A stretch of 46,242 bases of DNA from an uncultured Phycisphaeraceae bacterium (GTDB taxonomy: Bacteria > Planctomycetota > Phycisphaerae > Phycisphaerales > Phycisphaeraceae), in NCBI GenBank assembly GCA_964431205.1, contig CAYSIX010000001.1, positions 1 through 46,242 of the forward strand, written 5' to 3'. Positions 5,780-32,350 of the stretch are shown here, one piece after another; position 1 is the first letter of the stretch; each line of letters starts with the position of its first letter. Position numbers and translations under genes: made by a program. The notes below the pieces were generated by a model. The model had not been told where the DNA came from, did not search any database, and saw only the letters and a list, made by a program, of their open reading frames with translations.

Positions 5780-5828
5780 GCGAGCACGCGACGAACCCCC
5801 GCCGCGCCCCGCATCACAGTTCCTCGAG

Positions 5829-7828: not shown

Positions 7829-7880
7829 TCCGCGGGGCGGCGGATGGTCTCGCACCAACGTGCAGGTGGTCGCGACGCGG

Positions 7881-8819: not shown

Positions 8820-8847
8820 GCAACGACCCTTCCTTGATGTGGGTCTA

Positions 8848-17280: not shown

Positions 17281-19524
17281 TTGCAGGATCTGCAGCCACG
17301 GCTGATCGCTCCAACCCGCCGTCCTCGGCTCAATCACGACACGGTCGAGCGCGGCCCCGCCGCTCGCGATCGTCGCGTCGCCGTAACGGGCCTGCTGGCG
17401 GCGCTGGTCAGTGTCGTCGCGACGCTCGCTGTAACGAACGCCCAAGCCGACTCCGCCGTTCATCAACAGATCACCGACGAGGCGACGCTCTGGGCCGAAG
17501 ACCTCTATCAGCGTATGAACTGGTACGTGCCACTGATCCGCTTTTCGTCGACCGGGTCCGGCCCCAACGACCCGCGGTACGACGCCAAGCACCTCTACGA
17601 CATGAGCTATTACGACGAGGCCCGGCTCGTGCAGTTCCAGAACACGCGTGATCCGGCGATCGCCGACCAGTTGCTCACGGAGTTGGAGTTCGTCCTCGAC
17701 CTGCGGACCGGCGGGCCGCTGGACCCGTACCCGGACCCGCCCGAGACGTTGCGGACAGGGCCGACCGGGCCACGATGGGTCAGTTTCAATCGCTACTACA
17801 CCCAGGTGGCCAACCCGCCGCGGCACGCCTGGTTCGCCCACAACGCCCAGTACTTGTCCAACCACCTGCGCCTCATCGGCATGATCCGCAACGATTCAGA
17901 GTTGCACGCCGAGTTTGCCGACCGGATCGATTCGATCGTCCCGATCGCGGCGGAGATTCTCAATGGATTCGACCATGAGTTCCAGCACTACTCCGACGGC
18001 GTGCGCGGGCTCTACACCGACCCGTTCTACGCGTCACTTGGCGGAGGCACGTCCACTTATCCCGGTCTGCTGCCCTTGAACATGCAGTCGGCGGCGGGCT
18101 CGGCCTATCTGGGGCTCTACCAGGCCTCCGGTGAGGAGCAATATCGTGAACGCGCCGAGGCGCTGGCGCTGACGATGAAAAGCGATCTGGTCGCGTCCGG
18201 CGACCGGTATCTGATGGCCTACGGCCAGGACCAGCGTTACGCGGCCGGACGGGAGGACATAGGGCACGGCGCCGTCAGCATCGCCTTCATCGTCGAGGCC
18301 TACGAGGCGGGCCTGGTCTTCAACGACACGGACCTGGCGCGTCTGAGCAACACGCTGCGGGCGATGAAGAAGTCCAATGGCGAGTTCTCGTTCTTCCTCG
18401 ACGGGACGGACCACAGCGGTACCACGGGCGTCAATCCGGCGGGCCTGGCCAACCGCTGGCTCCGCCTGGCGTACTACGAACCTGAGCTACGCGCCGAGAT
18501 GTGGGACCATCTACACCCGTACTACGATACCAACAACAGCTCGTCCGCGGTGTACACGGCCCTGGCCATGGCCCACTACGCCGTCTCGGGCGAATCGCAT
18601 CGCCCTGAGCGGATGTTCGTCGACCGCTTTGACGGGCCGCAGATCAGCGCTCGTTGGCGGCGGCCGTCGGATGAGTCGCTCGATGTCTTCTGGGTCACCA
18701 GCGTTCAAGACGGAGCGCTTCTTGTTCGCGACGTTGTCGACAACGCGTCCTACCCCTCGAAGTGGGTAGGCCTGACGCGTAGTCGGGAAGTATCGCCGAT
18801 CGGATCCTGGTCCGTCGAGGTTGATCTGGAGTGGAACGCCGCCGAGGCCGGCTCAAACGCGCTCAACGTCGAGCACGCGTTTCTGGTGCAGTTGCTCGAC
18901 GACGAGGGCGACGTCTTCGCGTCCCTGGGCCTGGCGGACCTGTGGCCCGAGCAGACCGCGGGCAGGCAGTGGTCGCTCGCGGGCACCTCGAGCCGATCGG
19001 CCCACCCCGGCGAGCTGGATCAGGTCGGCCGGGCACTGCTTCAGATACGAAGCCTTGAAGACGAAGCGCGAACGGAGTTGTATTGGGATCAGACGATGCT
19101 CGCGGAGTGGGACGGCTACCATACACTGAGCGAGGTCCTGCTTGTTTTTGGCAAGCACTATCCGAGCCAGGGCAGCGCGAACATGGGCGATTTCACGATC
19201 CACCGCGTCGCCGTGAACGAGCTCGCGGCCCCCACCGTGCCCGGCGATGCCGACGGGGACGGCGACGTGGACGCGTTCGACCTGGGTATCTGGCAAACCG
19301 ATTTCGGAATGACCGGCGCGAGCCTGGCGGCCGACTTCGACGCGGACGGCGACGTCGACGGGTTCGATCTTGGCCTGTGGCAGACAAACTTCGGCCGTAG
19401 CGCCCAAGGCGTGACGGTGCCCGTGCCATCCGTCGGGGTGCTGATGGTGGTCAGCGCGCTGCTGGGTGTTGGTCGACAGGACCGGGCCATCGCCCGAGGC
19501 CGAATCGCTCACACGCAACGATGA
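17281..19524 (+). CDS. Large exoprotein of unknown function with C-terminal double dockerin-like cassette and degenerate PEP-CTERM tail
   Basis: ORF 17203..19524, but the hairpin at 17217-17258 lies in its 5' end. The first plausible start after the hairpin is TTG 17281 (AGGAG 9 nt upstream). Signal-like RDRRVAVTGLLAALVSVVATLAVTNAQA. Helix-rich central region, then a beta-rich region (FVDRFDGPQISARWRRP...). GDADGDGDVDAFDLGIWQTDFG / DFDADGDVDGFDLGLWQTNFG. The tail VPVPSVGVLMVVSALLGVGRQDR has VPVP instead of VPEP. Confidence 0.7.
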   Translation: MQDLQPRLIAPTRRPRLNHDTVERGPAARDRRVAVTGLLAALVSVVATLAVTNAQADSAVHQQITDEATLWAEDLYQRMNWYVPLIRFSSTGSGPNDPRYDAKHLYDMSYYDEARLVQFQNTRDPAIADQLLTELEFVLDLRTGGPLDPYPDPPETLRTGPTGPRWVSFNRYYTQVANPPRHAWFAHNAQYLSNHLRLIGMIRNDSELHAEFADRIDSIVPIAAEILNGFDHEFQHYSDGVRGLYTDPFYASLGGGTSTYPGLLPLNMQSAAGSAYLGLYQASGEEQYRERAEALALTMKSDLVASGDRYLMAYGQDQRYAAGREDIGHGAVSIAFIVEAYEAGLVFNDTDLARLSNTLRAMKKSNGEFSFFLDGTDHSGTTGVNPAGLANRWLRLAYYEPELRAEMWDHLHPYYDTNNSSSAVYTALAMAHYAVSGESHRPERMFVDRFDGPQISARWRRPSDESLDVFWVTSVQDGALLVRDVVDNASYPSKWVGLTRSREVSPIGSWSVEVDLEWNAAEAGSNALNVEHAFLVQLLDDEGDVFASLGLADLWPEQTAGRQWSLAGTSSRSAHPGELDQVGRALLQIRSLEDEARTELYWDQTMLAEWDGYHTLSEVLLVFGKHYPSQGSANMGDFTIHRVAVNELAAPTVPGDADGDGDVDAFDLGIWQTDFGMTGASLAADFDADGDVDGFDLGLWQTNFGRSAQGVTVPVPSVGVLMVVSALLGVGRQDRAIARGRIAHTQR
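19243..19395 (+). repeat. Dockerin-like double EF-hand cassette, copy 2 of 3 (coding)
   Basis: Same 51-codon block as 14703..14855 (-) and 41423..41575 (+). Confidence 0.85.
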
Positions 19525-20411
19525 GAGCCAAGATGCCTGACGACGCCCAAGACGTGCCCAGCGTCCAGATCTCACCGCGGTACTATCGATGGTTCGTCGA
19601 TTGCGACCGGCCGTGGCGTGAGTCTCACACGGGCTACGACCACTTGGAGTGGCAGGTGCCCGTCGGGTCGATGGCCCTGGTACTCGTCGACGTGTGGGAC
19701 CGCCACTACCTGCCCGAGCCGCAGGAACGGATCGATCGGATCACCCGGGACATGATTCGCCCGCTGGTCGAGGCGTGTCGGGAAGCCGGCGTCCACGTGA
19801 TTCACGCGCCGTCAGCCGAGACCGCGGAGCGGTACCGTGACCATTGGCCGGCTGGCACGGCGTCCCAAGCGGCGGAGCGGCCGGATTGGCCGCCGGCGTC
19901 GTTCCGAGCGCGGACCGGGCCTTATCGTCGATTCGCCGGTCGCGACGAGCCGGGGCGGCAGGAGTGGGAAGCGCTCAAGAGCTCTCGGCGGATTCACCCG
20001 GCAGTCGCCCCCCTCGCCGGCGACAGCGTGGTGCCCGACGCCGACGCCCTGCATCGGTTGTGTCGCGAACGCAAATTGTTGTTTCTCTTTTACGCCGGCT
20101 TCCACACCAACAGCTGCGTGCTGCTTCGCGATTATGGCATGTGGGCGATGTCGCAGCGCGGCTACGCCACCGTGCTGTTGCGCGACGCCACGACCGGGCT
20201 GGAGGCGTCTTTCACACGCGACACCATGGAGCAGACCCGGCAGACGACGCTCCTGCTCGAGATGTTCGGCAGCTGCAGCATCCCAAGCGGCGAGCTGCTG
20301 ACCGCGCTCGACGCGCTGCGGACGTCGAGCGACGGCGAATCATGTCGGTCCTCTGTCGCGCCGAGCACACCCCTCATCCCCGCTTCACGCATCGAGAGTC
20401 AATCGACATGA
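19521..20411 (+). CDS. Isochorismatase-like cysteine hydrolase (amidase-type)
   Basis: 296 aa. ATGA overlap with the upstream stop at 19521-19524. Family blocks: MALVLVDVWD (Asp strand) and LLFLFYAGFHTNSCVLLRDYGMWAMSQRGYATVLLRDATTG (nucleophile Cys context G..T..CV ... v.Da). Confidence 0.55.
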   Translation: MRAKMPDDAQDVPSVQISPRYYRWFVDCDRPWRESHTGYDHLEWQVPVGSMALVLVDVWDRHYLPEPQERIDRITRDMIRPLVEACREAGVHVIHAPSAETAERYRDHWPAGTASQAAERPDWPPASFRARTGPYRRFAGRDEPGRQEWEALKSSRRIHPAVAPLAGDSVVPDADALHRLCRERKLLFLFYAGFHTNSCVLLRDYGMWAMSQRGYATVLLRDATTGLEASFTRDTMEQTRQTTLLLEMFGSCSIPSGELLTALDALRTSSDGESCRSSVAPSTPLIPASRIESQST

Positions 20412-21661
20412 CCCAGACCAATTCCTCATCGAACGAGCATTATCCCACCGACCGCCCGTTTCGGTTCGGCGGCAACGAGCTTCGCTACGTACGCGAGGCG
20501 ATCGAGAGCGGCAACCTGTTCTATTGGCCGGAGGGCCGATTCGTCACTCGCCTGATCGACCACATCCGCGAACGATTTGAGATGCCGTACGCGGTGGCGA
20601 CGTCATCGGGTACGTCGGCGTTGCAGGTGGCGCTGGCGGCCGCGGGCGTGCGACCCGGCGCGGAGGTGATCGTCCCGCCGATCACCGACATGGGCACGCA
20701 CATCGCCGTGTTGCGACAGAACGCGATCCCGGTGTTCGCCGACGTGCACCCACACACGTACAACCTCACACCGGAGACGATCGAGCGGGCGATCACCGAT
20801 CGGACCCAGGTCGTGCTGCTCGTGCACCTGGCCGGCAACCCGGCCGACGCGCCGGCCATCGCCGACCTCTGCCGCCGCCGCGGACTCCTGCTGATCGAGG
20901 ACGCCGCGCAGGCGTACGGCGCCTATCTGCACGGCGAGCACGTAGGGACGTTCGGCGACTTCGGATGCTTCAGTCTCAACAACTCCAAGCACATCAGTTG
21001 CGGCGAAGGTGGCTTCGTCCTAACCCGCGACAAGCGGCTTTACGTGCGCGCCCACAACCACGCCGACAAGTTCTACGACCGTCACAATTCTGGTCTGTGG
21101 TTGCAGGAGCTGGGCGCCAACTTCCGCATGACCGAGTTGCAGGGCGCGGTCGCGCTGGCACAAATGGAGCGGATGGAGGCATTCACCGAACGACGCGGGC
21201 TGATCGGTGCGCGCCTCATCGAGATGCTATCCGACACGCCGGGCATCCTGCTGCCCGAGTCTCTGCCCGGAGCAACGTGCAGCTATTGGTTCCTGATGTT
21301 TCGGATCGACCCGACCGTCGTTCGCGTCTCACGGGAGGAGCTGCAGGCCCGGCTGACCGAACGCCGGGTTCGTTGCACCGCCGGTTATCTTCACCGCCCG
21401 AGCTATCTCGAGCCCATGTTCCAGAACAAGTCGTTCTTCCCGGGCGGCGTCTGGCCCGGGGAAGTTGTCGCCGGTCGGACGTACGACTACCGCGAGGTAT
21501 CGTGCCCGGTCGCCGAGCAGGTACTCGAGACCGCCATGACGCTGCAGGTCCACGAGGGTCAGACGGACCAGGAGGTGCAGTGGATCGGCACGCACGTCCT
21601 TAAGGTGTGGGCGCGTGCGATGCAGGATGCCAACGGCGTGGCGACGGAGGTCGGTGCATGA
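20408..21661 (+). CDS. DegT/DnrJ/EryC1/StrS-family PLP-dependent aminotransferase
   Basis: The real start is ATG 20408 (MTQTNSSSNEHYP), overlapping the upstream stop (ATGA). The longer track ORF 19844.. is an Arg-rich out-of-frame extension over the previous gene. Blocks: AVATSSGTSALQVALAAAGVRPGAEVIVPPITDMGT, LVHLAGNPADAPAIADLCRRRGLLLIEDAAQAYG, lysine context GCFSLNNSKHISCGEGG. Confidence 0.8.
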   Translation: MTQTNSSSNEHYPTDRPFRFGGNELRYVREAIESGNLFYWPEGRFVTRLIDHIRERFEMPYAVATSSGTSALQVALAAAGVRPGAEVIVPPITDMGTHIAVLRQNAIPVFADVHPHTYNLTPETIERAITDRTQVVLLVHLAGNPADAPAIADLCRRRGLLLIEDAAQAYGAYLHGEHVGTFGDFGCFSLNNSKHISCGEGGFVLTRDKRLYVRAHNHADKFYDRHNSGLWLQELGANFRMTELQGAVALAQMERMEAFTERRGLIGARLIEMLSDTPGILLPESLPGATCSYWFLMFRIDPTVVRVSREELQARLTERRVRCTAGYLHRPSYLEPMFQNKSFFPGGVWPGEVVAGRTYDYREVSCPVAEQVLETAMTLQVHEGQTDQEVQWIGTHVLKVWARAMQDANGVATEVGA

Positions 21662-23499
21662 GCGAGTGGTCGTCTTCCCCCGTCGCTGTGCTGGTCGCCG
21701 ATCCGCCGCCGCTGAATCGCCCGAGGTTCTGTGAAGCCGGCGCGTACCTCTTCGAGGTGCTCGAGCACGCGGGGATCCCGTACCGGCGGCTGAGCCTCGC
21801 CGCCGGCGCCGACATGACCGGCGTCAGCGTCCTGATCACCGTGGGCGAACCCGAGGCGGCCGTGTCCTGCATCCATGCGTTGCGGGCGTGGCTGGAGTGC
21901 GGCGGCGTCTGGATCAGCATCGCGGGCCTGCACGGCGAACCCGATCTGTTCGGCGTCAAGCCGTGTCGATCCCAGTACACCGGCATCTTCGGCACCGCTG
22001 AACAGATCTCGCTGGGCGAGGGCTACCTCGAGCCGACGCCGCTCGGACGCGACCAACCCATTGCCCAGCATATCGACCACCCCCTGCACTTTTTCGGTGG
22101 GCTAGCCGCCGAAGCGACAGACGCCGCCGTCCTCGCGCGTGTCCGCGACGCCCACGGCCAGCCGACCGACCGTGTGGGTGTCTCGCAGTGCCAGCGCGGC
22201 GAAGGGCTGGCGGTGTTCATCGGATCCGACCTGACCGGCTCGATTGTTCGCATCCAACAGGGCATTTCGGTCGGCACGGATCGCGTGTCGTCCGCGGACG
22301 GAACTGCGCCGAGTCAGGACGGCATTCTCAAGTCGGACGACGGCGCCGTGCTCGATCCGATCTTGGATCGTCAGGACGTGCCGGGCGTCACGGGGCTCCG
22401 CGCGTACCTGACGCCGGTCGCCGATCAGTGGCGTCAGCTCCTGATTCGCGCAATCCTGGCAGGGTGCCGGCGCGCGGCGGCGGACCTGCCGATGCTGTGG
22501 CTTTACCCGGGCACGATCACCGCGATCGCCCACATGTCTCACGATACCGACGGCAACGACCCGCAGAAGGCAAGCCACCTACTCGAGCAGCTTCAGGCCG
22601 CGGACATCCGATCGACGTGGTGCGTCATCCGGCCCGGATACGAGCCGGACGTGATCGCCCGCATCCGCGAGGCCGGACACGAGCTGGCCATGCACTTCGA
22701 CGCCCTCACGCCCGGACATGACTGGACCCGCGCGCAGTTCACCCGCCAGGCGTTGAACCTGGCGGATCAACTCGGCGCGATGCCCAGGACCAACAAGAAC
22801 CACTACCTGCGATGGGAGGGTGGGAGCCAACTCATCGAGTGGTGCGAGGCGCACGGCCTTCTGCTCGACCAGAGCAAGGGGCCTGCCAAACCCGGAGAGG
22901 CCGGCTTTCTCTTCGGCACCTGCCACCCCTACCGCTACGTCCGCGACGATGGTCGGCTCAGTGACGTGCTCGAGCTGCCCACACACACGCAGGACCTGGC
23001 GGTCTTCGTCGAGCCGGAAGTGTTGCCGCACCTGATCCGGGCCGTCCTCGCTCAGCACGGCGTGCTTCACCTGCTGTTTCACCCATCGCACGTGGACAAG
23101 CAGGCGGTCCGTGAGGCGATCGCTCGGGCCGTCACGCTGGCGCGCGAGGCGGGTCTCGAGTGGTGGACGAGCGAGCGGCTGGCCCGCTGGGAACGCGCTC
23201 GCCGCGCGGTGCGCTGGCAGGATCCGGAGGCCGACGACGCGGCCGTGGCGCTTCACCTGCCGGATGAGATCGCCGACCGGGTCACCCTCCTGTGGCTGAT
23301 GCAGGAGGAAGACAAAGCGACCTCCGCCGCCGACGGCGAGTCGGAGGAAACGATGCGCTGCTGGGGATTCGAGTTTAGACGCGCTCGCCTGGAACGGCGG
23401 GGCGACGCGTTCGTCGCCCGCATGCCGGAATCGGAATGCACGTTGGCCCTAGACGGGCGATCAAGTCCACCCATGGAACACTCGCCACGACAGGGCTGA
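21658..23499 (+). CDS. Two-domain protein: N-terminal domain of unknown function + C-terminal deacetylase-type (CE4 / glycoside hydrolase-deacetylase beta/alpha-barrel-like) domain
   Basis: Start ATG 21658 overlaps the upstream stop (ATGA). The C-terminal half contains TAIAHMSHDTDGND, GHELAMHFDAL and HLLFHPSHV, His/Asp-rich strands reminiscent of the polysaccharide-deacetylase fold. The assignment is tentative. Confidence 0.45.
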   Translation: MSEWSSSPVAVLVADPPPLNRPRFCEAGAYLFEVLEHAGIPYRRLSLAAGADMTGVSVLITVGEPEAAVSCIHALRAWLECGGVWISIAGLHGEPDLFGVKPCRSQYTGIFGTAEQISLGEGYLEPTPLGRDQPIAQHIDHPLHFFGGLAAEATDAAVLARVRDAHGQPTDRVGVSQCQRGEGLAVFIGSDLTGSIVRIQQGISVGTDRVSSADGTAPSQDGILKSDDGAVLDPILDRQDVPGVTGLRAYLTPVADQWRQLLIRAILAGCRRAAADLPMLWLYPGTITAIAHMSHDTDGNDPQKASHLLEQLQAADIRSTWCVIRPGYEPDVIARIREAGHELAMHFDALTPGHDWTRAQFTRQALNLADQLGAMPRTNKNHYLRWEGGSQLIEWCEAHGLLLDQSKGPAKPGEAGFLFGTCHPYRYVRDDGRLSDVLELPTHTQDLAVFVEPEVLPHLIRAVLAQHGVLHLLFHPSHVDKQAVREAIARAVTLAREAGLEWWTSERLARWERARRAVRWQDPEADDAAVALHLPDEIADRVTLLWLMQEEDKATSAADGESEETMRCWGFEFRRARLERRGDAFVARMPESECTLALDGRSSPPMEHSPRQG

Positions 23500-23569: not shown

Positions 23570-24910
23570 TCAATCGACACACGAATCGCTCGGCCACGGG
23601 TCGATCGCCTCGGCGTGGTGCCCGCCCAGGCCCGCCACGCTCGGATCGGGCAGGACGTGCCGACCGTCGCGCACGTCGAACAGCCCGGGGAATGCCATAT
23701 CCCAGCCACGGTTCGCTTCGGGCGTGAACTGCGGTGAGTTGAGCTCGACGCCGTTCAGCGTCGGCACGTGCGCCGCGAACAGACCCGCGTGCACCGCCGC
23801 GAGCGCGGGATTCGTCAGGTCCTGGAGCGACAGCTCGAGGTTGAACCTGTGGGCATAGGCGGCCGCGATCAGCGCGAAGCTGTGGCCCTTGCAGGTCTTG
23901 ATCGCGAAGCCGGACCATCCCTGCGCCCGCGCCAGGTCCATCGCCTCCAGCGTCGTCAGGCCTTCGTCCACCACGACCGGCTTGCGCGCGGCGATCGGAC
24001 GCCAGTCGTATGCGTGCTGGGAGATGTCTCGGCCGGTTGGCTGTTCGATCAGCTCAAGCGCCTCGTACGCGGCAGGGTCTAGCGTCTCCAGCACGTCCAG
24101 AAAGCCCGCGACGCTGCGCGCATCCGGATTGGCCTCGTTCGAATCGATGGAGACGCGCGGGTGCGCCACGCCCCACCGTCGCGCGGCCGACGCCACCTCG
24201 ATCACGCGCTTTGCGTCCTCCCCCGCGTCCCGCCCCATGATCTTGATCTTGAAAGCGGAGTAACCGCGGCGAGACACCGGCGGGCGAACGTCACGCTCCA
24301 GGTCGTCCGACTTGCCGATCAGCCACCACGCCGGGCTGCGGATCTGCCGACCGCGCGACAGCAGGCCGCGGATCGCTCGAAACGCCCCGCCCTCTGCGCC
24401 GAAGTACGGATCACACGTCGGCAGGCTCAATGGCTGGTCGTACAGCGCAAATGCGCTGCGGCCCAACGCCTGGCCGACCGCGTCGTGGATCGCGGCGTCG
24501 AAGATGCTCGCACACACGGCCCGGGCAAGCAGCGGCGGCGCAGCGGCGACGTCCGGCCGCTCATCGGTGACGACGTGCTCGTGCATCGCCATGCCCGCGA
24601 CGAGCGGGTGCGGCTGCTCATCCAGGAGGTGAGGCAGGCGATCGGCCAGTCGCAGGCACTCATCGCGCATCGCCGCCTCGCGCCGGGCGTGGCTGAATTG
24701 CGCGCTCGGCCACGCCCACAGATCACTGAGGTATATGCAGCCGCGACCGATCGACTCGACGCCATTGCACGCCGCGTGAACGCGCGCATCGGCCCTCGTG
24801 ATGGCCTCGATCCTGCCGGTGCTCAGCACCAGCGGCGTGGCGAACCGCTCGCGGCAGAAGCGCACCTCGGCGGACCGGACCCGTACCCGAGTCGACGTGC
24901 GGCCGCTCAC
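23570..24910 (-). CDS. Enolase-superfamily enzyme (mandelate racemase / muconate-lactonizing enzyme-like)
   Basis: 446 aa with a GTG start overlapping the regulator stop. KxK motif YSAFKIKIMG. Metal ligands in the usual order: SIDSNEA, ELIEQP, VVVDEGL. Second catalytic Lys context FAIKTCKGHS. Confidence 0.75.
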   Translation of the reverse strand: MSGRTSTRVRVRSAEVRFCRERFATPLVLSTGRIEAITRADARVHAACNGVESIGRGCIYLSDLWAWPSAQFSHARREAAMRDECLRLADRLPHLLDEQPHPLVAGMAMHEHVVTDERPDVAAAPPLLARAVCASIFDAAIHDAVGQALGRSAFALYDQPLSLPTCDPYFGAEGGAFRAIRGLLSRGRQIRSPAWWLIGKSDDLERDVRPPVSRRGYSAFKIKIMGRDAGEDAKRVIEVASAARRWGVAHPRVSIDSNEANPDARSVAGFLDVLETLDPAAYEALELIEQPTGRDISQHAYDWRPIAARKPVVVDEGLTTLEAMDLARAQGWSGFAIKTCKGHSFALIAAAYAHRFNLELSLQDLTNPALAAVHAGLFAAHVPTLNGVELNSPQFTPEANRGWDMAFPGLFDVRDGRHVLPDPSVAGLGGHHAEAIDPWPSDSCVD

Positions 24911-26037
24911 GCCGTCTCACCAACCAGGAGACTGACCGGGACGACCTGACGCAACGGTGGCGCGTCGATCCCGTCGCGCATCTCTTCGATCACCTGCCGC
25001 GAGCGGCGTCCCATCTCGTGAAGCCCGAGGTTGATCGAGGACATGGGCATGGGCCAGTCTCCATCCTCTAACACGGGCCCGGCGCCGACGATGGCCAGGT
25101 CCTGCGGCACGCGGACCTTCGCGGCGAGGGCCGCGAGCAGTCCGCCGCGAGCCATGAAGTCCGAGGCGAAAATGATCGCATCCGGACGGTGTTCAAGACC
25201 GAGAAGGCGTCGCGTAGCCTCGGCCCCATCGCTTTCCCCGTAGCCGGCCGTGACCTTCCAATCGGAACGAACCTCGAGCCCGTGCGCGGCGATCACCGCT
25301 TCGAACGCCTCCAGCCACCGGCCCGTGCTGAATCGCTCGGGGCCGGCGACCACGATCGCGATGCGTTCGCGCCCCCTGCGGACCAGGTGGCCGACGGCCT
25401 GGGCGATGCCGCTGCTGTAGTTGGGCACGATGCAGTGACTGAACCCGTCGACCACATCGCTGAACAAGAGCACGGTCGGGAGCTGCCTGAGGCGAGACAA
25501 CGCCAGGAGACAGGAGTTGATGGGCGACATCATGACCAGGCCATCGAGGCCCGAAAGCGGCAGACAGGCGTTCAGCTCTCGCTCGCTGTTCAGCTTCGCT
25601 GGGACGTCGAAGAGGCGCACGGCCACGTCACCGGTCGCGTCACGCAGGCCGGCGACGATCGGCCGAAAGAACGGGTACCCGTCGGCGAGGCTCGCGAACG
25701 CGATGCCCACGCTCAGCGTCTCGCGAACGGTCGGGTCTCGCCGCCGCTCCAGCTCATCAACGCTGCGCGCCACGATGGTGCCGGCACCCGGCTTGGCGAT
25801 GACCAGCCCCTCGGCCGCCAGCGACTGAAGCGATCGGCGGATGGTCATCTCGCTGATGCCCCAGCGGGCGCTGAGCTCACGTTGGGTTGGCAGCTCGTCG
25901 CCGGCCTGAAGCACGCCGTTGGCGATCTGACGCCGAATCAGGTCGGCGATCTGCAGATACAGGTGGACCCCATTGCCCCGCTGGACCTGCGCGCCGATCA
26001 CGTCAATCGAACGTGATTGCGATATCGTTGATGCCAT
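24907..26037 (-). CDS. AraR-type regulator: GntR-family winged-helix DNA-binding domain + LacI/PBP1-type sugar-binding domain
   Basis: ORF 24907..26097. Start moved to ATG 26037 (MASTISQ) because 26097 would overlap the divergent gene start. LYLQIADLIRRQIANGVLQAGDELPTQRELSARWGISEMTIRRSLQSLAAEGLVIAKPGAGTIVA is a GntR HTH. It is followed by a periplasmic-binding-protein-like effector domain (LSVGIAFASLADGYPFF...). Confidence 0.75.
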   Translation of the reverse strand: MASTISQSRSIDVIGAQVQRGNGVHLYLQIADLIRRQIANGVLQAGDELPTQRELSARWGISEMTIRRSLQSLAAEGLVIAKPGAGTIVARSVDELERRRDPTVRETLSVGIAFASLADGYPFFRPIVAGLRDATGDVAVRLFDVPAKLNSERELNACLPLSGLDGLVMMSPINSCLLALSRLRQLPTVLLFSDVVDGFSHCIVPNYSSGIAQAVGHLVRRGRERIAIVVAGPERFSTGRWLEAFEAVIAAHGLEVRSDWKVTAGYGESDGAEATRRLLGLEHRPDAIIFASDFMARGGLLAALAAKVRVPQDLAIVGAGPVLEDGDWPMPMSSINLGLHEMGRRSRQVIEEMRDGIDAPPLRQVVPVSLLVGETA

Positions 26038-26095
26038 ATTGCAATGTTCCAATACTTGTGCTAGGTTGTCAAGACCACCGTAACGGAACGATGAC

Positions 26096-27268
26096 ATGTC
26101 GAAGAAAGAAGCGTCACTGGTCGTTGGGTTCGTAGGGGCCGGCTGGATGGGCGCGGCTCAACTCAAGCAGTTGGCCGGGCGACCCGGCGTCGAGGTCAAG
26201 ACACTGTGCGAGCCCAACACCGAACGAGGTCGACAGGCACTGGTTGAGGCGGGGCTGCGCAACACCCAGCTCGTCAGCGATTACGAGCCCATCCTCGCCG
26301 ACGAGACGATCGACGCGGTCTGGCTGGTCTCGCCCAACGCCCACCACGGGCCCCAGGCGATTCAGGCACTGGAGGCGGGCAAGCACGTGTTCTGCGAGAA
26401 ACCCCCGGCCACGCGGCTCGAGCAGTTCACCCGCCAGATCGAGCTGGAACGAAGCCACCCCGGGCTGATCACCTTCGTCGACTACATCCTCTACTTCGAC
26501 CCGATGGAACGCCGACTGCGCCGGATGGTCGCGGACGGACTGTTCGGCGAGCTGACGCAGGTGCAGGTCAACTATCGTCACCCGGTCAACACGGCCGGGG
26601 ACAAGGCCTGGAAGCTGCGCCGCGACGTGATGGGCGATGCGATCGGCATGGGCATCAACCACGCGATCTCCGTGTTGCTTTGGATCATGCAGGCCAACGG
26701 CGCCTCGCCCGTCAGCGTCTTCGCCACGAGCCAGTCGGCCAAGGTCCGCGGGTTCGAGGCGGACCCGATTTGGAGCATCCAGATCCGCTTCGACAACGAC
26801 GCCAGCGGGTTCTGCTTCGGAAACATCGACAGCGGCAACGGGTACGACGCGTACCACAACCTCTTCGGCACCGAGGGCGGGTTCGTGTTCGATTCCGGGC
26901 TGGATCGTGCTCAGAAGGTACGGTTCTGGTCAAAACACGTCGCCGACGGCGAGTGGGTGTACCCGCTGAACGAGTCCCGCTGCCGCGAGCAGGGCGCGAC
27001 GCCCTGGCCCGACGACACCACCACGCCGGATTCGGGCGACGTCATCCACCACCAGATCGGTGAGGCGATCACGCACTTTCTGGACTGCGTCACGTCGCGT
27101 ACGCCCTCGCCGTTGAGCTTCGCGAACGCGGCCACCATCGGCCAGATCGGCTGGGCGGCGCAGGTGTCCGCGATGACCAACCGACCGGTGCGCCTGCCTC
27201 TGAATGAAGCGTCACAGACGTCGCTGGCTGACCATGGCCGGGCATCTCAAGGGAGCCGTGCATCATGA
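26096..27268 (+). CDS. Gfo/Idh/MocA-family NAD(P)-dependent oxidoreductase
   Basis: 390 aa. VVGFVGAGWMGAAQL (Rossmann loop) and HVFCEKPPA (EKP motif). Confidence 0.85.
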   Translation: MSKKEASLVVGFVGAGWMGAAQLKQLAGRPGVEVKTLCEPNTERGRQALVEAGLRNTQLVSDYEPILADETIDAVWLVSPNAHHGPQAIQALEAGKHVFCEKPPATRLEQFTRQIELERSHPGLITFVDYILYFDPMERRLRRMVADGLFGELTQVQVNYRHPVNTAGDKAWKLRRDVMGDAIGMGINHAISVLLWIMQANGASPVSVFATSQSAKVRGFEADPIWSIQIRFDNDASGFCFGNIDSGNGYDAYHNLFGTEGGFVFDSGLDRAQKVRFWSKHVADGEWVYPLNESRCREQGATPWPDDTTTPDSGDVIHHQIGEAITHFLDCVTSRTPSPLSFANAATIGQIGWAAQVSAMTNRPVRLPLNEASQTSLADHGRASQGSRAS

Positions 27269-28014
27269 AGGTGAAGATCGAACTCGACAGCCAGCGCTGC
27301 GGTCAAAGCGCGGCCGAGCTCGGCGCGACGCTGCTCCGCGAAGCGTTGGCGGAGCGCGGCAGGGCGACGATCGTCGTGGCCACGGGGGCATCGCAACTGC
27401 ACATGCTCGCGGCGCTGATCGACCAGCCTAACATCCGCTGGGACCGCGTCGAGGTCTTCCATCTCGATGAGTACGTCGGCCTGCCGATCACGCACCCGGC
27501 GAGCTTCCGGCGTTACCTCTGGGAACGATTCCATCGCCGACTGCCTCTGCCCGTCCACGCGTTCCATTACCTCGACGGGGAGCAGGACCCCCACGCCGAG
27601 GCCCGGCGTGTCGGAGATCTCATCCGTGAACATACGATCGACGTGGCGTTTGTCGGCATAGGAGAGAACGGGCACCTAGCGTTCAACGACCCGCCGGCCG
27701 ACTTCGACACCGATCAGCCTTATCTCGTGGTCGAGCTGGACGAGGCGTGCCGCCGTCAGCAGTTGGGCGAGGGCTGGTTCCAGAGCATGGATGAGGTCCC
27801 ACGTCAGGCGATCTCGATGAGCGTCCGGCAGATCACTAAGAGCCGCTCGATCGTCTGCACGGTCCCGGACGAACGCAAGGCCGCGGCCGTTAAGGCATGC
27901 GTCGAAGGACCGGTTACGAATGACGCGCCGGCTTCAATCCTGCAGCACCACGAGCACTGCACGCTCTTTCTCGATCAGGCCGCGGCTTCCCGGCTCGATG
28001 AGCAACCGGCATGA
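27265..28014 (+). CDS. nagB: Glucosamine-6-phosphate deaminase/isomerase
   Basis: 249 aa. ATGA overlap with the upstream gene. IVVATGASQLHML, VFHLDEYVGLP and the signature DVAFVGIGENGHLAFNDPPADF. Confidence 0.85.
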   Translation: MKVKIELDSQRCGQSAAELGATLLREALAERGRATIVVATGASQLHMLAALIDQPNIRWDRVEVFHLDEYVGLPITHPASFRRYLWERFHRRLPLPVHAFHYLDGEQDPHAEARRVGDLIREHTIDVAFVGIGENGHLAFNDPPADFDTDQPYLVVELDEACRRQQLGEGWFQSMDEVPRQAISMSVRQITKSRSIVCTVPDERKAAAVKACVEGPVTNDAPASILQHHEHCTLFLDQAAASRLDEQPA

Positions 28015-28967
28015 CGGCGCGTCACGGCTACGTCGACCTCCAGGTGAACGGCTACGCCGGCGTAGACTTCAACGGCGATGGCGAGCACGCGCTCACGCCC
28101 GAGTCGTTGCAGTCGCTCTGCAGCGCCCTGGACCGTGACGGCGTAACGCATATCCTCGCGACGTTCATCACCGACAGCGTCGACGTCATGGCGCAGCGGA
28201 TAACAAGGCTTGTCCGGCTACGCGAGACGGACCCGCTCGCCACGGAACTGATCCGTGGGATCCACATTGAAGGCCCCTTCCTCAACGAGACCCCCGGCTA
28301 CCGCGGCGCGCACCCGGCGGACGCTATTCAGCCGGCGTCGGTGCAGGTCATGGACCGGCTGCTCGACGCCGCCGCCGGCCTGACGCGAGTCGTCACTCTC
28401 GCCCCCGAGCGTGACCCGGGGCTGCGTGTGACCAATATGCTGAGCGAGCGCCGCATCGTGGTGTCGGCGGGTCACTGCGATCCGACGCTGGACGAGCTGG
28501 ACGCGGCGCTGGACGTCGGCCTGTCGATGTTCACCCACCTGGGCAACGGCTGTCCCATGCAGATGCACCGCCACGACAACGTGATCCAGCGGGTGCTGGC
28601 GCGCGCCGACCGGCTGTGGATCGGTTTCATCGCCGACGGCGTCCACGTGCCGTTTCATGCGCTGGGCAACTACCTTCGCCTGGCCGGCGAGCGGGCGATC
28701 GTGGTCACCGATGCCATGGCCGCCGCGGGGCGCGGGCCCGGACGACACCGGATCGCACGCTGGGAGGTCGACGTCGACGAAAACCTGGCGGCCTGGTCAC
28801 CCGATCGCAGCCACCTCGTCGGCTCCGCGATGTCGATGCCACAGGCCGAAGCCAACCTGCGGAATTGCCTTCAACTGGACGAAGCGACCTGTCGAGAGCT
28901 GCTCGTGAACCGACCCGCCCGAGCGGCGCAGCTCGAACCGGACCGTCGGACGTCTGACATCGCATAA
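28011..28967 (+). CDS. nagA: N-acetylglucosamine-6-phosphate deacetylase, short 'barrel-only' form
   Basis: 318 aa. ATGA overlap with nagB. Blocks match E. coli NagA in order: GYVDLQVNGYAGVDFN (cf. GFIDVQLNGCGGVQFN), GIHIEGPFLN, VSAGHCD, FTHLGNGCP, FIADGVHV, VVTDAMAAAG. The N- and C-terminal beta-sandwich segments are absent. Confidence 0.8.
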   Translation: MTARHGYVDLQVNGYAGVDFNGDGEHALTPESLQSLCSALDRDGVTHILATFITDSVDVMAQRITRLVRLRETDPLATELIRGIHIEGPFLNETPGYRGAHPADAIQPASVQVMDRLLDAAAGLTRVVTLAPERDPGLRVTNMLSERRIVVSAGHCDPTLDELDAALDVGLSMFTHLGNGCPMQMHRHDNVIQRVLARADRLWIGFIADGVHVPFHALGNYLRLAGERAIVVTDAMAAAGRGPGRHRIARWEVDVDENLAAWSPDRSHLVGSAMSMPQAEANLRNCLQLDEATCRELLVNRPARAAQLEPDRRTSDIA

Positions 28968-28979
28968 CCCATACACGCC

Positions 28980-30029
28980 ATGACTCAACACAACGACGTC
29001 CCCACCGCCGCGCCGCAAACCGTGGACGAGCTCGAGGATCGACTCTCGCAACCATCGCCCGGGCTGGTCGGTGACTTTCGCCAGCTGGAAGGCGATCTGA
29101 TCCTCCTCGGCGCCGGGGGCAAGATGGGTCCGACGCTGGCGCGGATGGCCCGGCGCGCGGCCGCGGAAGCGAACCGTCACGGGCGGGTGATCGCGGTGTC
29201 GCGGTTCAGTGACGCCAGCGCCCGCGATGCACTCGAATCGGCCGGCGTCGAGACGATCGCCGGTGATCTGCTCGACGAGCCGTTCGTCCGATCGCTTCCC
29301 GATGCCGAGAACGTCGTCTACATGGCCGGAATGAAGTTCGGCGCGACGGACAACGCCAGCCTCACCTGGGCGATGAACACGCTGCTGCCCGCTCGGATTT
29401 GTGAGCGATACGCTGCCAGCCGGATCGCGGCGTTCTCGACGGGCAACGTCTACGGCCTGACGCCGGTGACCGAGGGCGGCGCGGTTGAGACCGACCCGCC
29501 CAACCCGCAAGGCGAGTACGCGATGAGCTGTCTCGGCCGCGAGCGCGTCTTCGAGCACTACGCACGAATGCGCGGGACGCGGGTCTCGCTGTTGCGTCTG
29601 AACTACGCCTGCGAGCTGCGGTACGGCGTCCTGGTGGACCTGGCGTTGAAGCTCTGGTCCGATCAGCCGGTGGATTTGTCGATGAGCGTCGCCAACGTGA
29701 TCTGGCAGGCCGACGCCAACGCGATGGCGTTGCGTTCGCTGGCGCACGCGGCCAGTCCGCCGTTCGTGCTCAACATCGCCGGGCCCGAGCAGATCAGTGT
29801 CTGGCGTGTGTGTGAGACGCTCGGCGAACGGCTTGGCCGATCGCCGCAGTACACGGGCGAGCCCGGCGCCTCGGCGATCCTGAGCAACGGCCAGTTGGGC
29901 CACCGGTTGTTCGGCTACCCTCGGGTCCGCGTTAGCCTGCTGATCGACTGGGTCGCGGCGTGGGTGGCGCGGGGCGGGCCGACGCTTGGCAAGCCGACGA
30001 AGTTCGAGGTGCGCAACGGTCGTTTCTGA
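28980..30029 (+). CDS. NAD-dependent epimerase/dehydratase-like (extended SDR) protein with atypical active-site motif
   Basis: 349 aa. LILLGAGGKMGPTLARMA (GxxGxxG). AAFSTGNVYG. At the YxxxK position the sequence reads GEYAMSCLGRE (Y-x-x-x-C). Confidence 0.6.
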   Translation: MTQHNDVPTAAPQTVDELEDRLSQPSPGLVGDFRQLEGDLILLGAGGKMGPTLARMARRAAAEANRHGRVIAVSRFSDASARDALESAGVETIAGDLLDEPFVRSLPDAENVVYMAGMKFGATDNASLTWAMNTLLPARICERYAASRIAAFSTGNVYGLTPVTEGGAVETDPPNPQGEYAMSCLGRERVFEHYARMRGTRVSLLRLNYACELRYGVLVDLALKLWSDQPVDLSMSVANVIWQADANAMALRSLAHAASPPFVLNIAGPEQISVWRVCETLGERLGRSPQYTGEPGASAILSNGQLGHRLFGYPRVRVSLLIDWVAAWVARGGPTLGKPTKFEVRNGRF

Positions 30030-30080
30030 TCGGCCCGGACCGGCGCGCCGTGTCCACGCAACAGACCGGAAACGAAGACG

Positions 30081-31133
30081 ATGAGCCCGACGATTCGAGC
30101 GCGATTGCAGGCCGGCGTCGCCATCCCCGCGCACCCGTTGGCGCTGCGGCAAGACCGCCGGCTCGACGAACGGCGTCAACGCGCCCTGACACGCTATTAC
30201 CTCGCGGCGGGCGTCGGCGGGCTGGCCGTGGGCGTGCACACCACGCAGTTCGAGATCCGCCGCCCCGAGCACGCGCTGTTCGAACCCGTGCTGCAGATCG
30301 CGCGCGAGGAGATGGACCGCCACGAACACGCCGAGACGCTCGTGCGCATCGGCGGCATCTGCGGCCAGACGCGCCAGGCCGTCCGCGAGGCGGAGCTGCT
30401 GGTGCGGCACGGCTACCACGCCGGCCTTCTCTCCCTGGCCGCGCTACATGAAGCCACCGACGACGAGCTCATCGAGCACAGCCGCCGGGTGGCAAAGGTC
30501 ATCCCGATCGTGGGCTTCTACATCCAGACGGCGGTCGGCGGGCGAAAACTCCCGTACACCTTCTGGCGACGGTTCGCCGAGCTCCCCGAGCTGGCGGCGA
30601 TCAAGATCGCGCCGTTCAACCGGTACCAGACGCTCAACGTGGTCCGCGCAGTGGCCGAAGCCGGCCGCGACGACGTCGCCCTCTACACCGGCAACGACGA
30701 TAGCATCGTCACCGACCTGCTGACGCCCTACCGGTTCGGGATCGGCGGCCAGACCATCGAGCGCCGCATCGTCGGCGGGTTGCTCGGCCACTGGTCGGTG
30801 TGGACACGAAAAGCGGTCGAGCTGTTCCACGAGTGTCGCGAGCTCGCCAGCGGGAACGCCCCCGTGCCGATGTCCATGCTCGCCCGGGCCAACGAGGTGA
30901 CCGACTGCAACGCGGCGTTCTTCGACGCGGCCAACGGCTTCAAGGGCTGTATCGCCGGCCTGCATGAGGTGCTGCGCCGCCAGGGGCTGCTCGAAGGGCT
31001 CTGGTGCCTCGATCCGGATGAGACGCTCAGCCCGGGCCAGGCACATGAGATCGATCGGGTGTATGCTGCCTACCCGCATCTGAACGACGACGCGTTTGTG
31101 GCCCAGCATCGAGACGCCTGGTTGAGCGGATGA
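30081..31133 (+). CDS. Dihydrodipicolinate synthase / N-acetylneuraminate lyase-family (class I aldolase-like) protein
   Basis: 350 aa. AGVGGLAVGVHTTQFEIR resembles the GTTGE-type block. ELAAIKIAPFN is a candidate Schiff-base lysine strand. Family assignment is from memory of similar annotated proteins and is tentative. Confidence 0.45.
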   Translation: MSPTIRARLQAGVAIPAHPLALRQDRRLDERRQRALTRYYLAAGVGGLAVGVHTTQFEIRRPEHALFEPVLQIAREEMDRHEHAETLVRIGGICGQTRQAVREAELLVRHGYHAGLLSLAALHEATDDELIEHSRRVAKVIPIVGFYIQTAVGGRKLPYTFWRRFAELPELAAIKIAPFNRYQTLNVVRAVAEAGRDDVALYTGNDDSIVTDLLTPYRFGIGGQTIERRIVGGLLGHWSVWTRKAVELFHECRELASGNAPVPMSMLARANEVTDCNAAFFDAANGFKGCIAGLHEVLRRQGLLEGLWCLDPDETLSPGQAHEIDRVYAAYPHLNDDAFVAQHRDAWLSG

Positions 31134-32350
31134 CGATTCACGTGGATCTCGGTGAGATCGAACGGGCGAGGCAACGGATCGCCGGCGCGGTCGTCGAGAC
31201 GCCGTGCGTGCATTCCGAGGCGTTGTCGCAGCTCACCGGCTGCCGCGTGCTGTGCAAGCTGGAGAACCTGCAGCGGACGGGGAGCTTCAAGGAGCGCGGG
31301 GCGCGCCACGCGCTGGTGCGGCTGAACGGCGAGCGGGCGAAGCGCGGCGTGGTGGCGGCGTCGGCGGGCAACCACGCGCTGGCGCTGGCGTGCCACGGCC
31401 GGGAGCTGGGCATCGGCGTCACCGTCGTCATGCCACGGTTTGCACCGTTGACCAAGGTCACGCGTTGTCGAGGGTACGGCGCCGAGGTCGTGCTCCACGG
31501 CGAGACGTTCGCCGAAGCGCGCGCCCACGCCGACACGCTGACCGAGCGCGACGGGCTGACCTACATCCACGGGTTCGATGCGCCCGAGATTATCGCCGGT
31601 CAGGGCACGGTGGGCCTGGAGCTGCTGGAGCAGTGCCCGACGCTGGACGCGGTGATCGTGCCGGTTGGGGGTGGCGGGCTGCTGGCCGGCGTGGCGACCG
31701 CGATCAAGGGGCGCCGCCCGGGCGTGCGCGTCATCGGCGTCGAGCCGGCGCACGACGCGGGCTTCACCGCCGCCATGAACGCCGGCGGGCCCGTCCCCAG
31801 CCCCGGCACCGCCACGCTCGCCGACGGCCTGGCCGTGGGCCGCGTCGGCGCGCTCGCCTTCCGAACCGCCGCCCCGCTGACCGACCGCCTCGTCACCGTC
31901 GAGGAGTCGGCCATCGCCGTCGCCATTGTCCGCATCATGGAGCTGGAGAAAACCGTCGTCGAGGGCGCCGCCGCCGCCGGCCTCGCCGCTCTGCTCGATC
32001 CCCGCCTCCACGACCTGCGCGGCCGCACCGTCGCCCTCCTGCTCACCGGCGGCAACATCGACCTCAACGTCCTCGGCCGCATCATCGAGCACGCCCTGGT
32101 CACCGACGGCCGGCTGCTCCGCTTCACCGTCACCATCAGCGATCGCCCCGGCGGGCTCTCGCGCCTGACCACCCTCATCGCCGAGTGCGGCGCCAGTGTT
32201 CAGGACATCCGCCACGATCGCACCTTCGCCGGCCCGGACGTCAGCCGCGTCCGCGTCATCTGCCTCGTCGAGATCGCCGATCACCATCACGCCGACCGCA
32301 TGGTCCGGGCCCTCGAGCACGCCGGCTATCAGCTCGAACTCATCGCCTGA
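31130..32350 (+). CDS. Threonine ammonia-lyase-family PLP enzyme with C-terminal ACT-like domain (IlvA/TdcB-like)
   Basis: 406 aa. ATGA overlap with the upstream gene. PLP-lysine motif LCKLENLQRTGSFKERGARHAL. Glycine loop PVGGGGLLAG. The C-terminal ~80 aa (RFTVTISDRPGGLSRLTTLIAECGASVQDIRHDR) is ACT-like. Confidence 0.8.
   Translation: MTIHVDLGEIERARQRIAGAVVETPCVHSEALSQLTGCRVLCKLENLQRTGSFKERGARHALVRLNGERAKRGVVAASAGNHALALACHGRELGIGVTVVMPRFAPLTKVTRCRGYGAEVVLHGETFAEARAHADTLTERDGLTYIHGFDAPEIIAGQGTVGLELLEQCPTLDAVIVPVGGGGLLAGVATAIKGRRPGVRVIGVEPAHDAGFTAAMNAGGPVPSPGTATLADGLAVGRVGALAFRTAAPLTDRLVTVEESAIAVAIVRIMELEKTVVEGAAAAGLAALLDPRLHDLRGRTVALLLTGGNIDLNVLGRIIEHALVTDGRLLRFTVTISDRPGGLSRLTTLIAECGASVQDIRHDRTFAGPDVSRVRVICLVEIADHHHADRMVRALEHAGYQLELIA

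Follow-up and report, generated by a model that had tools for sequence, protein, structure and literature searches.

What does a gene for a threonine-dehydratase-like enzyme do at the end of what looks like an amino-sugar operon? The question is raised by six plus-strand genes at positions 26096-32350 of a 46,242-nucleotide stretch of DNA (contig CAYSIX010000001.1, assembly GCA_964431205.1; the whole stretch is called the window below) from an uncultured Phycisphaeraceae bacterium of the Planctomycetota. In order, they encode a Gfo/Idh/MocA oxidoreductase, a NagB-like deaminase and a short NagA-like amidohydrolase (block 1), an atypical short-chain dehydrogenase/reductase (SDR) and a lyase of the DHDPS/NanA superfamily (block 2, the pair), and IlvA, a pyridoxal phosphate (PLP)-dependent threonine/serine ammonia-lyase (block 3). 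An earlier note on this DNA had read the last three genes as a possible additional, oxidative route for amino sugars. The explanation that we consider best, and in which our confidence somewhat outweighs our doubt, is that all six genes make up a single catabolic operon, probably under a divergent AraR-type regulator and assembled from three separable blocks, in which an amino-sugar block is joined to an SDR-lyase-IlvA module that would deaminate a Ser/Thr-type product.

The conserved unit is the SDR-lyase pair

Protein families were assigned with Pfam and NCBIfam profiles, using the NCBIfam equivalog cut-offs, and neighbouring genes were mapped by tblastn, with families annotated for a minority of the pair's neighbours. 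Gene content, modularity and recurrent linkage were read directly from the genomes compared. L-numbers denote compared loci and C-numbers contigs, and G000 is the window's own genome, which is 92% complete.

The lyase has more than 8000 relatives, the best 120 of which are 68-76% identical to it and are spread across phyla. Among the genomes sampled, 23 of 301 from Planctomycetota, 37 of 251 from Verrucomicrobiota, 5 of 251 from Bacteroidota and 67 of 201 from Paenibacillaceae carry it; counts are by locus or genome, and how independent the lineages of one phylum are is only partly known. In the sampled Planctomycetota, Verrucomicrobiota and Paenibacillaceae some 8-33% of genomes have the SDR-lyase pair, which makes it very common. 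At 16 of 20 planctomycete loci the SDR gene immediately precedes the lyase gene, and at a 17th it immediately follows it. The two also adjoin each other at 63 of 80 loci from more than ten phyla (among them Planctomycetota, Verrucomicrobiota, Acidobacteriota, Armatimonadota, Hydrogenedentota, Bacteroidota, Chloroflexota, Gemmatimonadota, Omnitrophota and Bacillota) and at 32 of 35 Verrucomicrobiota/Bacteroidota loci.

The other four genes of the operon do not travel with the pair in this way. IlvA, the NagB-like protein and the Gfo enzyme are encoded at none of the 20 planctomycete loci, and a NagA-like gene occurs once, on the opposite strand. Given these absences, and given that relatives of the short NagA-like gene stand apart from the pair (see below), we regard the six genes as three blocks joined in the window's lineage; that they are a single conserved unit is ruled out, since only the pair is conserved. 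A de novo search of the pair's neighbours found no universal third partner, the commonest neighbours being GNAT (11 of 103), MFS, Gfo, M20 and xylose-isomerase-like TIM proteins. We found no published description of the SDR-lyase module in the literature on glucosaminate lyase, on this gene combination or on nonulosonic-acid catabolism. In one relative of the window's family (L089/L090; G314, contig C17, 61387-62514) the match to the DHDPS-like gene is split into two parts some 60 nucleotides apart (query residues 7-196 and 193-348), which may be the result of a frameshift or mark a pseudogene.

Unrelated serine/threonine deaminases stand behind the pair

Four Phycisphaeraceae genomes (G000, G302 with locus L076, and those of L097 and L145) have the order SDR, lyase, IlvA, and an AraR-type gene lies upstream of the pair in G302/L076 and L097. 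At L145, where the IlvA gene is the sole copy in its genome, a gene for an M20D amidohydrolase follows it. In the Paenibacillaceae, sdaAB and sdaAA, which encode an iron-sulfur L-serine dehydratase, directly follow the pair at 21 of 30 loci from different genomes. Both products clear their equivalog cut-offs, and the linked sdaAA is the genome's only one in the two linked Paenibacillaceae genomes checked. The extended form of this operon (L299-L318, L160, L169) comprises genes for a regulator, the SDR, the lyase, SdaAB, SdaAA, an M20D enzyme (TIGR01891), a Gfo/Idh/MocA oxidoreductase, a solute-binding protein and two permeases, so that the SDR-lyase-IlvA-M20D order of L145 mirrors SDR-lyase-SdaAB-SdaAA-M20D. 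A third arrangement is seen in four Verrucomicrobiota, where SDR, lyase, TetR and an optional M20D gene are followed by a gene for a single-chain SdaA; among other loci of this phylum, one has M20D alone and one a PALP enzyme at the deaminase's place. Each of the four linked genomes that were checked (G000, G532, G326 and G327) has its linked deaminase as the sole copy. A 442-residue protein encoded upstream of the pair in Paenibacillaceae was considered as a possible enzyme and rejected, its look-alikes in the Atlas being transcription regulators.

These results support the conclusion that a Ser/Thr ammonia-lyase was recruited directly downstream of the pair independently in three phyla, by way of non-homologous enzymes. 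Two non-homologous enzyme classes of the same chemistry hold the same operon position in three phyla, a recurrence for which chance is a poor explanation and which we take as functional coupling. Because unrelated serine deaminases hold the same spot in two other phyla, the terminal threonine/serine deaminase of the operon is probably part of a breakdown pathway that is widespread and as yet uncharacterised. The proposal that the distal genes provide an extra route is thus upheld in part: SDR and lyase are a conserved module to which a deaminase is recurrently recruited, but the glucosaminate lyase chemistry that the earlier note gave them found no support. Two unrelated Ser/Thr deaminases and an aminoacylase, repeatedly attached to the pair, offer a concrete handle on its chemistry, and the module is present in cultured strains of Paenibacillus and Cohnella, where genetics is feasible.

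Several observations weigh against a Ser/Thr-deaminating module. In most genomes the pair has no adjacent deaminase: there was none in any of the 24 cases of our first planctomycete sample, and none at 76 of the 80 multi-phylum loci. In the Paenibacillaceae, 9 of the 30 loci have no sdaAB-sdaAA after the lyase gene, and at L275 and L298 a Gfo gene follows the lyase gene directly and sdaAB-sdaAA-M20D is missing. Within the window's own family the co-occurrence of IlvA and the pair is not strict, and IlvA orthologues in relatives (55-60% identical) adjoin VKOR, QueC, PanE, GatB, AccC or PEPCK. No M20D homologue was found in G000, so that no gene there is assigned to the release of Ser or Thr. 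Finally, the SDR, having no catalytic Lys (see below), could be non-catalytic. Since most pairs stand without a deaminase, we take the deaminase to be optional, and since the sdaAB-sdaAA-M20D segment is lacking from part of the Paenibacillaceae loci, we take it to be an optional cassette.

IlvA looks ordinary, yet not simply housekeeping

The earlier note suggested that the IlvA-like product might be a special lyase and proposed a check for a separate housekeeping ilvA elsewhere. Our check of the genome found a single ilvA, whose product is a standard equivalog. IlvA clears the cut-off of TIGR01127, the model for one-ACT threonine ammonia-lyases (Table 1), over model positions 1-378, and its motifs SFK (residue 52), SAGNHA (78) and GGGGL (180) align with TdcB and IlvA structures. 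The Pfam ACT profile scores 23.1 bits against a cut-off of 27 bits; the TIGR01127 model spans the domain. The alignment shows no substitutions particular to operon-linked IlvAs, and no iron-sulfur serine dehydratase was found in G000. With no second ilvA, no residues specific to the linked proteins and no long branch, a specialised paralogue is ruled out.

There is a rival explanation for such an enzyme. IlvA could be a plain threonine deaminase supplying isoleucine synthesis, located downstream of a sugar operon by inherited synteny in a few Phycisphaeraceae and having no functional tie to it. Its score above the TIGR01127 cut-off, its ACT domain and its status as the only ilvA all fit this explanation, as do the presence of ilvC, the housekeeping neighbours of the relatives' orthologues and the restriction of IlvA linkage to one family within the Planctomycetota searched. 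We nevertheless consider it quite improbable. Chance synteny is inadequate to explain non-homologous Ser deaminases at the same position in Paenibacillaceae and Verrucomicrobiota, and the ATGA overlap of the ilvA and lyase genes suggests translational coupling. The distribution of citramalate synthase (CimA) also speaks against it. CimA is encoded in G000 (628 bits, above the TIGR00977 cut-off; C226, 3507-5096) and in 18 of 18 sampled relatives of the family, whereas full-length IlvA is encoded in 5 of the 18, its distribution being patchy and largely complementary to that of citramalate synthase. In four of five other sampled families of the order CimA was not found. Lastly, the linked IlvAs are polyphyletic: unlinked genes fall between the four linked ones in the tree of IlvA, and well-supported branches force at least three changes of linkage.

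Our conclusion, drawn from profile, alignment and distribution, is that IlvA looks like an ordinary one-ACT threonine ammonia-lyase, yet is not simply a housekeeping one. Because CimA is present in all sampled members of the window's family and IlvA in only part of them, and because isoleucine synthesis can run via CimA, IlvA is accessory there and not an obligatory route to 2-oxobutyrate. More generally, in a lineage where 2-oxobutyrate is made through citramalate, an IlvA with the score of a textbook biosynthetic enzyme can serve catabolism in an accessory way, embedded in an operon.

The proteins of the pair

The SDR retains an intact Rossmann motif (GAGGKMG) and departs from the extended-SDR motifs in that YAMSC (YxxxC) replaces YxxxK. 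All of 81 homologues have Tyr180, and 79% have Cys at position 184. An AlphaFold2 model (predicted local distance difference test score, pLDDT, 92.6) has a generic GalE-like fold, with a template modelling (TM) score of about 0.7.

The lyase model (pLDDT 94.2) is a DHDPS/NAL TIM barrel, which places the protein in the class I aldolase superfamily. Its Lys175 and Tyr147, which align with NanA Lys165 and Tyr137, are each conserved across 90% or more of 32 aligned sequences. In structure it best matches N-acetylneuraminate lyases (TM 0.70-0.74, 18-20% identity), and a profile search of the PDB with the lyase found nothing closer than NanA enzymes. The protein is not itself a NanA, having HTTQF in place of NanA's carboxylate-binding GSTGE and a best phmmer E-value of 2.5e-7; neither a close solved structure nor a match to a curated family was found for it. 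DapA, which by the earlier note would have told against its scheme, can be set aside: the lyase is absent among the eight G000 matches to TIGR00674, and the true dapA lies on C196 (372 bits). From the fold and the conserved Lys and Tyr, the pair would be expected to cleave an intermediate of the 2-oxo sugar-acid type. Sequence, profile and fold searches gave no specific likeness of either protein to Udh, KdgD, 2-keto-3-deoxygluconate (KDG) aldolase or threonine dehydrogenase.

A further explanation, which concerns the chemistry of the pair, is compatible with the one that we consider best. The SDR might reduce 4-deoxy-5-hexosulose uronate (DHU/DEH) to KDG or 2-keto-3-deoxygalactonate (KDGal), and the lyase might be a non-phosphorylative KDG/KDGal aldolase; the NagA- and NagB-like proteins would then use the hexosamine partner of a uronate-hexosamine glycan, and the deaminase, with M20D, would use the Ser or Thr that some uronic acids carry in amide linkage. 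The DHDPS/NAL family includes the KDG aldolases of Sulfolobus, and the known DEH and KduD reductases are SDRs. A two-enzyme route would also account for the pair standing alone. There is some support from neighbouring genes: a gene for a heparinase III-like polysaccharide lyase immediately follows that of the DHDPS-like lyase in Paenibacillus faecis (L170, 9047-11110), another lies near the pair in a planctomycete metagenome-assembled genome (L043, 4295-5695), GH88-like and GH109 genes are part of the L152 operon, and the window holds UxaE and an enolase-superfamily gene. Such polysaccharide-lyase or GH88 neighbours, however, occur at 3 of more than 130 loci. The SDR has no catalytic Lys, the lyase is no nearer to a characterised KDG aldolase or to KdgD than it is to NanA, and amides of uronates and amino acids are a niche substrate. 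We find this explanation doubtful.

The amino-sugar block

The names nagB and nagA, which the earlier note gave to the second and third genes, are right as to family and active-site blocks and wrong as to equivalog, since both proteins score below the cut-offs (Table 1) and canonical nagB genes are present elsewhere. The LDEY and GIGxNGHxAFNxP motifs of the NagB-like protein align with Bacillus subtilis NagB (2BKV), so that it has the expected active-site blocks (LDEY, GxGxNGHxxFNEP), and with its deaminase motifs retained we do not favour a lactonase. The two canonical nagB genes, on C237, clear the TIGR00502 cut-off with 311.9 and 259.3 bits. They match in tandem (C237, 1689-4573) within open frames of 681 and 698 residues and are therefore long fused forms of NagB.

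The NagA-like protein covers positions 56-331 of the 380 in TIGR00221 and consists of the barrel alone; it does not have the full NagA architecture, the beta-sandwich domain being missing. Its QxN, HxEGP, SAGH, THL and TDA blocks align with E. coli NagA (1YMY), in which we take them to be the catalytic and metal-binding blocks. A longer NagA-like gene is present elsewhere in G000. The short form is a conserved family (median 311 residues, 50-62% identity) at 76 metagenome loci (L190-L265), about 10 of which have an adjoining NagB-like gene. At none of the 76 did we find the SDR-lyase pair or IlvA beside it. The neighbours of these relatives are varied and include class III aminotransferase, AIRC-like, PhoH, Gfo and glutamate dehydrogenase genes.

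Are block 1 and the pair then together by accident? Genes of the Gfo family recur next to the pair, in Paenibacillaceae and at L099, L119, L141, L150 and L152, and amino-sugar genes (NagA/NagB-like, DegT, GNAT) recur near it in unrelated lineages. At L123 and L152, in two unrelated low-GC genomes, NagA/NagB-like genes are in the same operon as the pair, and for this reason we think an accidental fusion unlikely. In our proposal block 1, as oxidoreductase, deaminase and deacetylase, would handle an amino-sugar moiety.

A shared regulator and a conserved element

The gene divergent from the operon, described in the earlier note as an AraR-type regulator, does have the AraR-type architecture, a GntR winged-helix helix-turn-helix domain fused to a sugar-binding domain (Pfam Peripla_BP_1 and Peripla_BP_3). 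Its likely start is at 26037. Homologous regulators (30-39% identical) flank the SDR-lyase pair at other loci, divergently at L051, L076, L097 and L363 and co-directionally at L141.

The control region contains a 20-nucleotide element, CCATATTGCAATGTTCCAAT, at 26034-26053, whose first base lies at the regulator's start codon. The identical 20 nucleotides are found at the matching position in Phycisphaerales AB-hyl4 (L051, 6869-6888), where the homologous regulator directly faces the SDR-lyase pair, and this despite the two regulators being only about 39% identical. A related element, ATTGCGAT...GCAAT, is present at L097. We propose 26034-26053 as a candidate operator or 5' leader element. That the same element and a homologous regulator face the pair directly in AB-hyl4 suggests that regulator and putative site belong primarily to the pair. 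If the regulator serves the pair, the Gfo/NagB-like/NagA-like block would seem to have been inserted behind the same control region in the window's lineage.

The start of an enolase-superfamily open reading frame (ORF) overlaps the stop of the regulator gene. Its product may play an auxiliary part in sugar-acid metabolism at this locus; in the other genomes compared, no such gene was found beside the pair.

What the module may do

In the chemistry that we propose, blocks 2 and 3 would be the local form of a widespread module. The pair, often with a Gfo enzyme, would process the 2-oxo sugar-acid part of the substrate, and the Ser/Thr ammonia-lyase would deaminate a beta-hydroxy-alpha-amino acid arising in the pathway. 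This acid is most likely L-serine or L-threonine itself, which in other lineages M20D may release. Acting with its ordinary chemistry, IlvA would be an accessory catabolic enzyme that forms pyruvate or 2-oxobutyrate and ammonia. We infer both the order of the reactions and the substrate. To judge from the enzymes' family membership, ordinary L-Ser/L-Thr deamination is more likely than D-glucosaminate deamination, because the Paenibacillaceae counterpart is a canonical iron-sulfur L-serine dehydratase, encoded by the only sdaAA in the two genomes checked. To our knowledge, IlvA and iron-sulfur SdaA share no substrates other than L-serine and, weakly, L-threonine. The M20D enzymes of TIGR01891 are, by NCBIfam assignment, N-acyl-L-amino-acid amidohydrolases.

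A broader proposal, which we put forward tentatively and below even chances, is that there is an undescribed multi-phylum pathway in which a NanA-like lyase, a YxxxC SDR, M20D and an interchangeable PLP or iron-sulfur deaminase consume a sugar acid carrying Ser/Thr, or an L-configured amino-aldonate, the planctomycete operon being a variant fused to NagA/NagB-like genes. If true, this pathway would be the L-amino-acid-like counterpart of the OngB/OngC route for oxidised chitin.

The scheme of the earlier note, extended to the loci compared here, would have an N-acetylhexosamine oxidised to the N-acetyl-amino-aldonate by the Gfo enzyme or the SDR and then deacetylated by the short NagA-like protein (M20D elsewhere); IlvA (SdaA elsewhere) would deaminate the resulting 2-amino-2-deoxy-aldonate to a 2-keto-3-deoxy-aldonate, which the DHDPS-like aldolase would split to pyruvate and an aldehyde. 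It gives a role to every enzyme class in the G000 and Paenibacillaceae operons. Also in its favour are the assignment of the M20D enzymes of TIGR01891 as N-acyl-L-amino-acid amidohydrolases and the L-amino-acid configuration that 2-epimeric (manno) or L-series amino-aldonates would have. The deaminases, on the other hand, are standard equivalogs and sole copies in the four linked genomes, and the IlvAs have no substitutions specific to linkage. Iron-sulfur L-serine dehydratases have a narrow specificity for L-serine, and the configuration at C2 of D-glucosaminate and D-galactosaminate is D. Moreover, the core operon is often without deacylase and deaminase, which would break a linear route, and the NagB-like protein retains its deaminase motifs, unlike a lactonase. 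A precedent does exist in Pseudoalteromonas, where GlcNAc1A, the N-acetyl-amino-aldonate of oxidised chitin, is treated like an N-acetyl amino acid: an aminoacylase-type deacetylase (OngB) and a PLP deaminase (OngC) lead to KDG, on which KdgK follows, and the authors liken the route to D-amino-acid catabolism (Jiang et al. 2022; PMC9537276). Because this route deacetylates and then deaminates an N-acetyl-amino-aldonate to KDG, the sequence of oxidation, deamination and aldol cleavage has a general precedent. The amino-aldonate chemistry is unsupported at the present locus, where L-Ser/L-Thr is the more likely substrate, and we consider the scheme unlikely, though a rival to be taken seriously.

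Relation to known systems

The module for Ser/Thr-type products resembles the Ong route in outline, in that a sugar-derived N-acyl amino acid would be deacylated, deaminated to a 2-oxo acid and then split to pyruvate by the products of a repressor-controlled cluster with a dedicated importer. The enzymes differ. By the families named in PMC9537276, the Ong route uses a D-aminoacylase-type amidohydrolase and a D-amino-acid deaminase, as against M20D or the short NagA-like protein and IlvA or iron-sulfur SdaA here. Instead of a kinase there are a NanA-like lyase and a YxxxC SDR, and the stereochemistry implied is L rather than D.

Clusters for sialic acid (nan) combine the NanA lyase with a Gfo/Idh/MocA oxidoreductase (YjhC/NanOx), an ATP-binding cassette importer, NagA and NagB. 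Our lyase has NanA as its nearest solved fold and is accompanied in several lineages by Gfo/Idh/MocA genes, sugar importers and NagA/NagB-type genes. It is nonetheless only 18-20% identical to NanA and has HTTQF where NanA has GSTGE; NanK, NanE and sialidase were not seen with it, its constant partner is the atypical SDR, and nan clusters have no role for Ser/Thr deaminases or M20D.

With the IlvA of B. subtilis type (TIGR01127) the window's enzyme shares a score above the cut-off, the PLP-binding Lys, the SAGNHA and GGGGL motifs and a C-terminal ACT domain. What sets it apart is its place: the gene ends a catabolic operon of sugar type, overlaps the lyase gene and has no ilv/leu neighbours, in a family where CimA is universal and IlvA patchy.

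The oxidative uronate route has an SDR of the epimerase family (Udh) and an enzyme of the DHDPS family (KdgD), together with an enolase-superfamily cycloisomerase. The same two families are paired here, and in the window an enolase-superfamily gene adjoins the regulator gene; there is, however, no specific similarity to Udh or KdgD, and none of the other loci has the enolase-superfamily gene. Glucosaminate-6-phosphate lyase (DgaE) likewise deaminates an amino-aldonate to a 2-keto-3-deoxy acid, but is set apart, by its description, through another PLP fold family and a phosphorylated substrate.

Layout of the operon and its surroundings

The six ORFs were confirmed on the plus strand in the order and at the coordinates given by the earlier note (Table 1), and in all six the GC content at the three codon positions (GC1/GC2/GC3) follows a coding-type pattern. 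The three ATGA overlaps that it had mentioned are likewise in place, at 27265-27268, 28011-28014 and 31130-31133; the remaining junctions are gaps of 12 and 51 nucleotides. No terminator-like site was seen on the plus strand within the operon, and we infer that the six genes are co-transcribed.

Table 1. Genes of the operon and of its divergent flank, with the profile matches on which the family assignments rest
Gene product	Position	Strand	Profile match
Gfo/Idh/MocA NAD(P)-dependent sugar oxidoreductase	26096..27268	+	Pfam GFO_IDH_MocA 82.4 bits; under all NCBIfam equivalog cut-offs
NagB-like amino-sugar-phosphate deaminase paralogue (Glucosamine_iso)	27265..28014	+	TIGR00502 137.4 bits (cut-off 236.9)
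Short NagA-like amidohydrolase, 318 residues	28011..28967	+	TIGR00221 172.5 bits (cut-off 225.65)
Atypical extended SDR, first gene of the pair	28980..30029	+	Pfam Epimerase 38.3 bits
Distant DHDPS/NanA-superfamily class I (Schiff-base) lyase, second gene of the pair	30081..31133	+	DHDPS family, weak, 23.9 bits
IlvA, PLP threonine/serine ammonia-lyase with one C-terminal ACT domain	31130..32350	+	PALP and ACT; TIGR01127 402.8 bits (cut-off 378.75)
AraR-type regulator	24907..26037	-	GntR 71.4 bits, Peripla_BP_3 75.3 bits
Enolase-superfamily enzyme	23570..24910	-	Pfam MR_MLE_C 48.8 bits

Beyond these genes, the window also holds DUF1559/N-methyl genes, which together with the named relatives put the organism in the Planctomycetota, close to the Phycisphaeraceae. 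The entire window may be a single island for the use of an amino sugar or acidic glycan. Further genes for DegT aminotransferase, isochorismatase-like, deacetylase-like and Gfo proteins lie at 19521-23499 and 4583-10107, and DegT homologues recur beside the SDR-lyase pair at L043, L100, L128 and L164.

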